DNA from: a virus
Taxonomy: Duplodnaviria; Heunggongvirae; Uroviricota; Caudoviricetes
Strand: one strand, 5' to 3'
DNA: 9,872 nucleotides
IMG/VR virus record: IMGVR_UViG_2671180724_000011
The notes under the pieces are model-generated. The model made no database searches. It saw nothing but the letters and a program-made list of their open reading frames with translations, and was not told the DNA's origin. Made by a program: the position numbers and the translations under genes. Positions 4,026-6,824 of this stretch are shown piece by piece (the stretch's first letter is position 1; each line of letters starts with the position of its first letter).

Positions 4026-6824
4026 ATGTGGGGAAGTGAAAACAAACAAAATCTGGACGTACTGGATCCTGTGCAGTTGGTGCGTATCGAAGCGGTACAC
4101 CGGGGGTTCCTTTACCAGCATCTTTACGCTGTAGGCTGCTTACTTTTGGCGCAGAGGGCAGCTATGGACTCAGTAACTGTCGAGCTTGATGAGGATATTG
4201 AGCTGAAATCCAAACAGGAACGTCTCTACATTCAGGTTAAAACCCGTTCAAAACCTATTATGCCCAACGATGTGTCGGGGGCTCTGGAGCGATTTGTAAA
4301 GCTCAGAAATGAGCATACTTCGGCAAACCGCGAAGGGGTGGCTTCTTTTGTGATTATTGTAAACCAGGCGCCTGGACCGCTGCTTCAGAAGATGATTGAC
4401 GATAAAAAGCTTCCTTCTGATGTTCTTATTGTCTGGCCCCAGTCGACAGCTGGACGTCACCCGGCACTTCCGCCCGCATGGAGTACTCTGGCTGATGCGG
4501 CCACATGGTGTATCGCAGAAGCAGAAAAGCTGAAATTTTCACTATTGTCCCCAGAATCCTTGATTTGGAAGTTAGCAGGATTGGTTCAGCTTGCCGCCAC
4601 CGGAGGCGATACCAATGGACAACATACGTTTTTCACGGAAGAACTTACTGAACTATTTGAACAGTTGATCGTTCAGCTACAGGACTTTCCTGCACCACCA
4701 GCACTGTACCGCCCACAGAACGAAGAACCTTCTCTCACATCTGGTGAGCGGATCCGTATCCTTTGTGGACTCTCAGGTGCAGGCAAGACAGCTTGGGCCG
4801 CACAGGCCGCATTACACTCCACTGCACTTTGTGCTTATTACGACACCGGTGATCTTCCCGGTCCAGCTCTGGCCAGTACGCTGGTGCGCGAGATGGCTGC
4901 TAGATTTACAGCCCGTGACCAAGACGGTTTGCGCAGGATTTTGCTCCCCGGTGCCAGTGGTTTTGAGGCTCTTAGGAGTTTTGATACCTACCTGAAAGAG
5001 CAGGGTACCACCTTGGTGCTGGTTCTGGATAACGCCCATCGTGTACCTGCGGAAAATCTACTGGATGTTCTGAATGCAACTACACATATTCGTTTTGTGC
5101 TGTTGTGCCAGCCTCACGAAAACGTTCGCGAACTGGAGGTCATGACGGGGCTACAGCGCGAGGGCCTGCAGGGATGGAATCTCGATACGGTAGCTGTCGT
5201 TGTAAACGATATCGGAGGATTTGCCACCGCTATGGGATACGAGCAGCTACGGGCTTACACTGGTGGTCTTCCCCTGTATGTAGAGAGCGCCGCAAAAATC
5301 GCCGTTTCTGATTATGAGCGTAATGTCGATGCTCTGTGTGCTGAACTCCAGCAACAAACCCATACTGCGGAAACCGCCCAAGAAATTATTCTGTCACGTG
5401 TATTTCAGGGATTTGAATCACTACTTCAGAGCGCGCTGGCATTGTTCAGTCTCTCTGACGTAGGGCTGAGTCGCGAAGAGATTTCTACGCTCCTAATCAA
5501 TTCGCTGAACATTTCACCAAGCAGTGCTGCTTCTTTAATTAGGAAAATGCGCGCTACTGGCACTATTGAAATTTATGGAAACCAGACCCTGAAGGTACAT
5601 GATGCTGTCAGGGGGCTAGGACTGCAACATCTGGAACTGATGGATCAGGGTATATCGAACAAAGCGCTACTAGCGCTGAAAGACCTTTTAGTTGAAAGTC
5701 TTCATAATACCCGCAATACAAAACGGTTATCGTTGTTGACTCAACTTTATATTAAGCTCAATGATGTCACGACGTTGATCGAACTCTCAGGCCAAGAAAT
5801 GTTTTATGAGATGGGCGTGACGGTCGACATTCTTGCAAGCTTGGAGCGTGCTGCAACATCGGACTTATTGGGACCTGTTCATAAATTCTGGGCATTGGAT
5901 GGCCTTGTTTTCGTTGAGCTTAAAGACGGAATATCCGACCACATTGCTCAGAGGTTAAACATCATGGGAGCTTTACTTGCGGAGCACAAGTTCGGCTATC
6001 AAGAAGAGATGGCCTATGCAATGAAACGAATGTTATTTTCGGCAGAAAGCAATGATGCACGAGAAGTTCAAAAGCTGGCACAGGAAGTCCGCCCCCAACT
6101 CCCAGATGAAGAACATAAACGCATCTTTGACTACAACCATGCCATTGCACTCTGGAGATTAAAAAAACTCAAGGATGCTGAAACATTAAGCTGTAATGTT
6201 ATACAAGGGTACTATTCTTTATTTGGTATCACACCTGCTGATGTCATAGGAAAAAACGCCGACGCATTATGGAAAACTATTAATCATTCCGAAAATATGC
6301 AGGAACACTTTAAACATATGGCTGATGCTCTGGAGTTGCTGGCCAGAATTCGTGATGCGCAGGGAAAACTGTCACCATTACTGCGTATTCATTCGATGAA
6401 GTTCTACAATCTGGCCATGGCCCCGGAATCCATGGTCAGGGTGGGCCAAGATCTGGCGGATGAGTTTGTTGCCATAAAGGATTACGACGGTGCCAAGGAA
6501 GTCATGGAGCAACATGTCCTGCCGGTTGTCAATGAGGCAGGTCTAGTACATCGACTGATTCAGGTTCGAAGCCAATACGCAGTCATATTAGCACTATCGG
6601 GTCAGCATAAAGCAGCTGATGTCGAAATGCAGCGCCTTGCTCCCTATATCGAAGGCCTCACAGGTGTACAGCGTCAAGAAATCCAAAATCAATCAAATTA
6701 CATCGTACAGCTTGCCCATAAAGCAGCAAAGACTAAATTAACTGAAGTTTTTGGTGCGGTCGGCCGGAATGAACAATGCCCCTGTGGCTCGGGAATAAAG
6801 TACAAAAAATGTCACGGTGCCTGA
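4026..6824 (+). CDS. 932-aa multidomain P-loop NTPase: N-terminal restriction-endonuclease-like region, central Walker A/B NTPase (STAND/AAA+-like), helical C-terminal region, terminal SEC-C-type zinc motif; candidate antiphage defense protein
   Basis: ATG 4026 with AAGGA 7 nt upstream; uninterrupted 2799-nt ORF; Walker A GLSGAGKT (aa 248-255, nt 4767-4790); Walker B-like LVLVLDNAH (aa 330-338); N-terminal RGFLYQ...VELDEDIEL...IQVK (aa 26-72); C-terminal [14 protein letters not shown] (nt 6777-6818). Confidence 0.9.
   Translation: [932 protein letters not shown]

Follow-up and report, generated by a model that had tools for sequence, protein, structure and literature searches.

Prokaryotic STAND proteins have recently been classified from 656 curated seeds, which combine earlier predictions of defence STANDs with BLAST matches whose effectors are of the Cap4, Mrr, Trypco2 or MBL type (Lee et al., Nature 2026; preprint 10.64898/2026.01.04.697583). 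In the available part of that paper, Avs8 and Avs10-21 are named with their triggers and Avs22-24 without, and there are precedents both for the use of host factors by STANDs and for the sensing of 'host chaperone perturbation'. SeAvs7, which has a Cap4-STAND-TPR arrangement, is described there as binding a phage capsid protein, swapping ADP for ATP, tetramerising and cutting DNA, with EF-Tu as its host co-factor (Lee et al., 2026). The nucleases Cap4, LmuA, HamA and HerA-DUF4297 are activated by oligomerisation. We analysed a 9,872 nt stretch of viral DNA (Caudoviricetes; IMG/VR record IMGVR_UViG_2671180724_000011; hereafter the window), in which one gene on the + strand encodes a protein of 932 aa that joins a nuclease-like N-terminus, a P-loop NTPase, a helical region and a terminal SEC-C zinc motif. 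The gene is likely to be a stand-alone antiviral STAND (Avs-type, NLR-like) with which a lambdoid prophage, having it as cargo, excludes other phages. An earlier interpretation drawn from the letters of the window (the sequence-only reading) had proposed such a single-gene Avs/STAND defence; the domains, the folds, the solitary position of the gene and its setting in mobile elements and defence islands support it, the phenotype itself being predicted.

The uninterrupted open reading frame (ORF) described in the sequence-only reading was confirmed at 4026-6824, and all the motifs quoted there lie at the residues given. Almost all homologues are 932 aa long with a near-invariant M1, which backs the start and the length. 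A word-indexed search yielded 933 homologues, nearly all of ~932 aa, and an exhaustive profile search yielded 392 clusters (50% identity) at E<1e-30; conservation of a 2.8-kb ORF over its full length on this scale far exceeds chance. The ORFs that are antisense to or overlap 4026-6824 are short (<=83 aa) and without support, and Rfam contains no family matching this interval. The protein was compared with Pfam at the gathering cut-offs, which SEC-C, AAA_22 and Cap4_nuclease all pass. Invariance was called from an alignment of 57 homologues with 92-49% identity (A1), with which a full-length AlphaFold2 model was also built; the model is confident, with a mean predicted local distance difference test (pLDDT) of 80.3. 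The features of the gene are as follows.

4026..6824, + strand: complete coding sequence of 932 aa plus stop, ATG start, uninterrupted; nuclease, STAND NTPase, TPR-like sensor and SEC-C tail
4104..4673, + strand: Cap4-like PD-(D/E)xK nuclease effector domain (aa 27-216), mixed alpha/beta in the AlphaFold2 model
4182..4241, + strand: predicted nuclease active-site strands (aa 53-72), with E53, D55, D57, E59 ... Q70-V-K72
4674..4745, + strand: proline-rich linker from nuclease to NTPase (aa 217-240), conserved although of low pLDDT
4746..5225, + strand: nucleotide-binding domain (aa 241-400), Rossmann-like; Pfam AAA_22, AAA_16
4767-4790, + strand: Walker A GLSGAGKT (aa 248-255), with G248, G251, G253, K254 and T255 invariant
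5016-5033, + strand: Walker B VLVLDN (aa 331-336; LVLVLDN 330-336), with D335, N336 and then R339 invariant
5226..5372, + strand: helical domain (aa 401-449), with the GLPL-type motif GGLPLYV (aa 413-419) at 5262-5282
5373..5645, + strand: winged-helix domain (aa 450-540), in which the MHD-like motif K-V-H525-D526-A-V-R529 immediately follows the beta-hairpin wing
5646..6749, + strand: TPR-like alpha-solenoid sensor (aa 541-908), ~17 helices, all-helical in the AlphaFold2 model
6708..6758, + strand: variable tether (aa 895-911) from the last helix of the sensor to the zinc knob, pLDDT 57-65
6759..6821, + strand: SEC-C (SecA-type) zinc-binding motif (aa 912-932), ligands C918, C920, C929 and H930

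In the N-terminal domain, RGFLYQ, ELDEDIEL and IQVK occupy residues 26-31, 53-60 and 69-72, and Pfam Cap4_nuclease matched aa 25-77 with 27.1 bits (cut-off 26.2). When the single sequence, a full-length profile and an N-terminal profile were searched against the sequences of solved structures, no match to the Avs (SeAvs3, SeAvs4, EfAvs5), Cap4 or LmuA chains was obtained, and a hidden Markov model of the N-terminal domain gave zero matches among PDB sequences. As the sequence and profile searches reached only the SecA and YchJ peptides resembling the tail, fold comparison was needed to trace the kinship of the nuclease. Residues 1-235 were modelled separately (predicted template-modelling score, pTM, 0.82), and the model was searched against PDB folds. 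All matches with E<=0.02 were defence or restriction nucleases of the PD-(D/E)xK type, namely HamA (3e-6), Cap4 (6e-5, many chains), MspJI, LmuA, SeAvs3 and HerA-DUF4297; the weaker matches were mostly further restriction or excision nucleases, and nothing unrelated ranked above the nucleases. The Cap4/DUF4297-type domain put forward in the sequence-only reading thus has the PD-(D/E)xK fold in the model, and the relationship is detectable only at the fold and profile level. Strands 49-52, 58-61 and 65-72 are common to the full-length and domain-only models, and E53, D55, D57, E59, Q70 and K72 are all invariant in the 57 sequences, down to 49% identity. D57 at the start of strand 58-61 and Q70-V-K72 in strand 65-72 fit the D...QxK motif variant, which is found in MspJI-type and Cap4-type enzymes. 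From the PD-(D/E)xK fold, D57 and QxK72 are predicted to be catalytic.

The NTPase passes the AAA_22 cut-off of Pfam (aa 239-364, 32.6 bits, cut-off 27), and AAA_16 was found below threshold (21.4 bits against 32.6). In the helical domain, G414 and P416 are invariant and G413, L415, L417, Y418 and V419 near-invariant in A1. K523, H525, D526 and R529 are invariant in the winged helix, where the model places a hairpin (514-516/522-524) followed by a helix (526-538). We equate GGLPLYV with the GLPL motif that NB-ARC/STAND proteins have in the helical domain, and the K-V-H-D-A-V-R that follows the wing with the MHD motif; these functional equivalences, and a nucleotide-sensing role of H525, are presumed from position and conservation. 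The fold of the nucleotide-binding, helical and winged-helix domains together (NOD) aligns with those of PH0952 STAND-TPR, MalT, the NB-ARC proteins NRC1/NRC2 and Apaf-1. These matches together with the GLPL and VHD motifs indicate that the NTPase, which had been recognised from Walker A and B, is a genuine STAND module beyond a mere P-loop; the protein shows Walker A/B, the NOD fold, GLPL and MHD-like motifs, and a listing in the curated STAND set. In the linker that joins the nuclease to this module, 7 of the 24 columns are invariant (Q217, Q219, F221, P222, Y228, E234, P235), and this segment is possibly an autoinhibitory or hinge element.

The ~550 aa of helical-looking sequence noted earlier proved in the model and in fold searches to end in a TPR-like solenoid. 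The majority fraction of the sensor in the family is 0.69, as against 0.71-0.77 for the enzymatic domains, which would fit the recognition of a conserved target. The polypeptide therefore unites an effector, a STAND and a repeat sensor, the tripartite architecture of Avs proteins.

The tail is the sole unusual feature of the gene. Pfam SEC-C matched aa 914-931 with 38.8 bits (cut-off 20.4; 8e-10), and C918, C920, C929 and H930, which form a CxC-x8-CH pattern, are near-invariant in A1; the G-S-G-K-K-Y-K core typical of the domain is present as well. The SEC-C motif named in the sequence-only reading is further borne out by matches of the tail to the C-terminal zinc-finger peptides of SecA (1SX0, 1OZB, 1TM6) and also to YchJ; the 1OZB peptide (1ozb_I) agrees with it at 16 of 21 positions. 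With a majority fraction of 0.83 the tail is the most conserved segment of the protein in the family, and it follows the least conserved one, as the tether (895-911) has a fraction of 0.37 and zero invariant columns. In the AlphaFold2 model the tail is undocked and floppy, with low pLDDT. It is present in 169 of the 218 full-length family members (~78%) and absent in 49, which include 5/5 Streptomyces loci and scattered proteobacterial loci; the tail is thus dispensable for the core function. Three tail-less homologues (P0153, P0244, P0245) end in long Lys/Arg-rich stretches, e.g. ...KRRAKDEHKRQRKARKRQRK, and here another appendage, of basic character, may take the place of the SEC-C knob. SEC-C motifs occur elsewhere in defence, at the C-termini of the PADLOC models E2, E1-E2 and PDC-S12 and in Rugutis, a validated lactococcal antiphage protein. 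SEC-C, SecA, SecB and zinc are never mentioned in the available part of the text of Lee et al. (2026). Literature searches that combined SEC-C or SecC with STAND, Avs or NLR returned only incidental co-mentions with 'STAND' or 'phage defence', in two lactococcal papers, and nothing connecting SEC-C to an Avs or NLR protein.

The sequence-only reading did not recognise the combination with a SEC-C tail as a named system, and in this respect it has to be corrected. Seed #193 of the curated set, WP_021564393.1 (Escherichia, NTPase 227-435), is identical at 207 of 209 of the same residues here (99%) and thus represents the same family and essentially the same protein in the same residue numbering (Lee et al., 2026). 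The family is therefore already catalogued as a curated STAND seed; its clade and a possible Avs number were looked for in the main text and the figure legends of the paper, which do not identify it. EcAvs19 and EcAvs22-24 in that paper are E. coli proteins, and the gene may be one of these. Public annotation is generic (WP_000264572.1, 'SEC-C metal-binding domain-containing protein'), and look-ups of WP_000264572 and WP_021564393 in the literature retrieved zero papers.

Compared with SeAvs7 and SeAvs3, the NOD of the protein is nearest to the PH0952/MalT type, a SEC-C zinc tail is present and no sequence similarity is detectable; SeAvs3 (Gao et al., 2022; PDB 8DGC) is moreover ~2,000 aa long, against 932 aa here. 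PH0952 STAND-TPR of Pyrococcus horikoshii (6MFV) and MalT (8BOB) share 12-15% identity with the protein and are without a nuclease effector and without SEC-C, and MalT is a transcription activator. Cap4 (6VM6/6WAN), LmuA (9UX8, 9NXX, 9HR5), HamA (8ZUE) and HerA-DUF4297 (9C1M) use the same nuclease fold as a killing module, but they are ruled by SAVED and a cyclic nucleotide, an SMC protein, a helicase or HerA, whereas here the nuclease is fused to its own STAND switch. The CxC-x8-CH motif of the SecA C-terminal zinc domain and of the YchJ/YecA SEC-C proteins is near-identical to the tail. Unlike in SecA, YchJ/YecA and Rugutis, it is appended here to an immune STAND, with no translocase, UPF0225 or Rugutis-like body, and it is C-terminal, whereas in Rugutis it is N-terminal. 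Among the candidates that we rejected, GiPD474, a Gifsy-prophage defence ATPase, is ParA/MinD-like with GGVGKT at residues 29-34; an effector of the CBASS Cap4 type was dismissed because Pfam detected no SAVED domain and no CD-NTase is encoded among the E. coli neighbours; and identity with Lamassu LmuA was dismissed because the E. coli locus is without LmuB and LmuB-like proteins are encoded by only 4 of 119 neighbour ORFs elsewhere.

Among species-level genomes the family is spread patchily over Gamma-, Beta- and Alphaproteobacteria, Desulfobacterota, Negativicutes, Streptomyces, Acidobacteriota, Spirochaetia and Nitrospirota. The homologues are mostly chromosomal and, rather than in phages, lie in defence islands, where they stand alone in the company of Gabija-, Lamassu-, PARIS-, Druantia- and AbiH-like genes. 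In 5/5 distant loci that were sampled, the gene is solitary amid defence or mobility genes.

V. cholerae locus: PIN_12-AbiH, AAA_15/TOPRIM and UvrD Gabija-like pair, AAA_13, integrase
Pseudomonas locus: AbiH immediately downstream; metal-resistance element
Variovorax locus: HNH, M78 peptidase, DruA and DruE-like helicase
Yersinia locus: Gabija-like pair
P. kielensis locus: AAA_15, CTD3, integrase

When the closest neighbours of the gene at 30 further loci, 119 ORFs in all, were compared with PADLOC (E<=1e-10), LmuB was matched by four (best 8e-132) and GajA and GajB by two each (up to 1e-240), and AriA, MADS components, a DRT reverse transcriptase, Old and Ppl were also found. The neighbours thus belong to many different systems, with zero recurrent partner. 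The Pseudomonas homologue is followed after 60 nt by a gene of the AbiH family (L003-L005 12860-13762), and in V. cholerae the PIN_12-AbiH pair is found a few kb upstream (L002 4465-5424), so that the AbiH association is recurrent, not conserved. The chromosome of Pseudomonas sp. MPB23 carries two full-length copies of the gene far apart, each ~71% identical to the window protein.

In E. coli, the prophage setting was confirmed in a complete genome that carries a 100% identical gene; the gene is solitary here, at the distant loci and in the neighbour scan. It sits in a cargo slot (DUF977-[cargo]-hokD) that lies between the replication and the nin/Q modules of a lambdoid prophage in decay. It is carried by 16 of 5,426 complete E. 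coli genomes, in every case with at least 99.3% identity, and is missing from nearly all syntenic prophages. These hold other cargo in the slot, such as a pair of proteins (320-333 aa) in one strain or four small ORFs in CFT073, which makes the gene a moron-type insertion in a variable slot. All 10 loci found in IMG/VR come from the same E. coli lineage, and faecal phage contigs contain two divergent copies with 34-39% identity.

The defence phenotype, trigger, oligomerisation, DNA substrate and role of the tail that we infer for the protein are combined in the following model, whose dynamic steps are drawn by analogy with SeAvs3, SeAvs4 and SeAvs7. In the uninfected cell the protein would be an autoinhibited, ADP-bound monomer, in which H525 of the winged helix would touch the nucleotide and the nuclease would be held against the NTPase and the sensor. 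On infection, the TPR-like solenoid (aa 541-908) would bind a conserved phage-made protein, whereupon the NOD would open, ADP would be exchanged for ATP via Walker A K254, and the NODs would oligomerise; the D335-N336 pair of Walker B suggests slow hydrolysis, as in a switch. The Cap4-like domains assembled by oligomerisation might then become active in degrading double-stranded DNA without sequence specificity, and the infection would be aborted. The zinc knob on its variable tether would be an accessory that modulates localisation or recruits a host factor. This is the simplest view of the tail, whose most likely role is localisation or host-factor recruitment outside the core switch.

Several points weigh against the assignment to Avs-type defence. 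Our literature search found no phenotype, trigger, oligomer or nuclease activity reported for the family. Full-length homology to a housekeeping or an ordinary phage protein was not found, but PADLOC v2, NCBIfam and PHROGs gave solely partial or tail-driven matches and no full-length named defence system. In the PADLOC check proposed in the sequence-only reading, run at E up to 1, fragments of LmuA (the top match to the N-terminus), DUF4297 and HamA were matched, besides hits driven by SEC-C, and no full-length system model was, with the Avs1-5/AVAST models unmatched. The Cap4_nuclease match in Pfam is marginal and partial, covering profile positions 7-63 of 200. The nearest NOD folds, PH0952 and MalT, are non-immune proteins, and the second position of Walker B is N, not acidic, so that ATP hydrolysis may be weak, judging from the motif. 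Conservation of the sensor comes close to that of the enzymatic domains, so that it shows no sign of the rapid diversification of some immune receptors. The neighbour scan is qualitative, without a matched random-gene control.

That PH0952 and MalT provide the nearest folds for the sensor as well as the NOD, and that the gene has the replication module on one side and nin/Q on the other, would also suit a STAND serving the prophage or host outside immunity, either as a MalT/PH0952-like regulator or as an accessory nuclease in phage replication or recombination. We regard this as very improbable, as the protein yielded no match to a DNA-binding output domain and has as its output a nuclease with intact predicted catalytic residues, and as the gene is missing from nearly all syntenic prophages while most homologues are chromosomal in defence islands. 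Alternatively, several genes might make up the system and the protein might be only its nuclease subunit, in the manner of a Lamassu-like LmuA with its SMC-type partner LmuB. The top PADLOC match of the N-terminus and the LmuA structures among the fold matches point in this direction, LmuB-like proteins are the most frequent single family among the neighbours (4/119), and SMC_N/AAA_13 proteins are encoded within 10 kb at several loci. However, the E. coli prophage locus is without an LmuB-type partner, the neighbours vary across all sampled loci, and the protein has its own NTPase and sensor, which are absent from LmuA proteins; the LmuB-like genes lie several kb off, often on the opposite strand, and are likely to be independent systems of the same island. 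A subunit of this kind is scarcely to be expected.

A further alternative refines the Avs model itself. The protein could be a host-factor or guard sensor, whose SecA-like knob tethers it to SecB or the ribosome; either of these would serve as a structural co-factor, like EF-Tu for SeAvs7, or would be guarded, so that its perturbation by a phage leads to firing. The zinc domain of SecA has SecB and ribosomes as partners. The tail shares 16 of 21 positions with the SecA peptide 1OZB and also matches 1sx0/1tm6, it looks like a knob on a tether, its own conservation (0.83) being the highest in the protein and that of the segment bearing it (0.37) the lowest, and it is undocked in the model, with low pLDDT. 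Host-factor use and 'host chaperone perturbation' sensing have precedents among STANDs in the available part of Lee et al. (2026), and SEC-C recurs in the defence proteins Rugutis, E2, E1-E2 and PDC-S12. Nevertheless, the tail is missing in 49/218 members, including Pseudomonas and Alphaproteobacteria members whose relatives keep it, and SEC-C motifs are common in many unrelated proteins (YchJ and others). We consider a host-factor or guard sensor unlikely, and the specific proposal that a SecA-mimicking knob plugs the receptor into the SecB chaperone or the ribosome, as co-factor or guard, distinctly improbable; if true, bacterial immunity would be reusing SEC-C as a 'host-factor docking' module, also in Rugutis, PADLOC E2/E1-E2 and PDC-S12.

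Returning to the stand-alone Avs-type STAND, confirmation of the phenotype would give the E. coli pangenome a further Avs family borne on prophages, with possible use in host-range prediction for phage therapy and in mapping the phage proteins that bacteria recognise. The advance is an incremental one, since both the effector-STAND-sensor plan and Avs proteins of the Cap4 type were known before, in a class that now counts ~90 or more families, and since the family already figures in the curated list. The SecA-type zinc tail could teach whether NLR-like recruitment of host factors extends past the single example of EF-Tu.

The flanks of the gene in the window contain the following elements.

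3783..4025, + strand: AT-rich intergenic spacer of 243 nt, GC ~0.40 vs ~0.50 in the gene
3952-3957, + strand: perfect -10 hexamer TATAAT, lacking a good -35
4014-4019, + strand: Shine-Dalgarno AAGGAA, 7 nt ahead of the ATG
6898-6926: promoter-like site near hok/sok
6933-7107: sok, Rfam RF01794, 110 bits
~7102-7257: hokD, with a longer mok-like ORF from 7045

The AT-rich spacer that had been noted ahead of the gene is evident from these GC values. A consensus promoter scan gave no scoring promoter on the + strand within 3783..4025, promoter and terminator scans by consensus found none above chance beside the 932-aa gene, and the sequence 3′ of the stop folds only a little better than shuffled sequences do (z -2.3). 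At 6933-7257, 109 nt downstream of the gene, lies a complete toxin-antitoxin locus of type I, hok/sok. The upstream DUF977 gene (3374-3782) is broken into two overlapping ORFs by a frameshift, and pseudogenes in the identical complete genome further include the prophage integrase and a TerB gene (L001 11340-12390, 26421-26849); the prophage is decaying, and the 932-aa ORF is nonetheless intact.

The window is unfaithful at 7296-9872, where 11-N gaps (8077-8087, 9077-9087) separate repeated copies of 'hypothetical 92 aa + DUF968' that are 85-100% identical, spaced 758 and 1000 nt apart and present as a single copy in the complete genome; these right-end repeats look like scaffolding of collapsed prophage paralogues. 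The alternative cargo of E. coli UID2404240036 (L010 2149-4128) consists of adjacent hypothetical proteins of 320 and 333 aa, which, when compared with known defence, gave only sub-threshold matches to HEPN_RES_NTD1 and GNAT; the pair may constitute a further conflict or toxin system of this hotspot, as yet uncharacterised. In E. coli NZ_OZ546984.1, the gene is split by the annotated IS3-family element ISEc52, leaving fragments designated 'dsDNA nuclease domain' and 'SEC-C', which is an example of gene inactivation; judging from the match length only, the viral contig at IMG/VR locus L100 6001-10049 probably carries a similar split.

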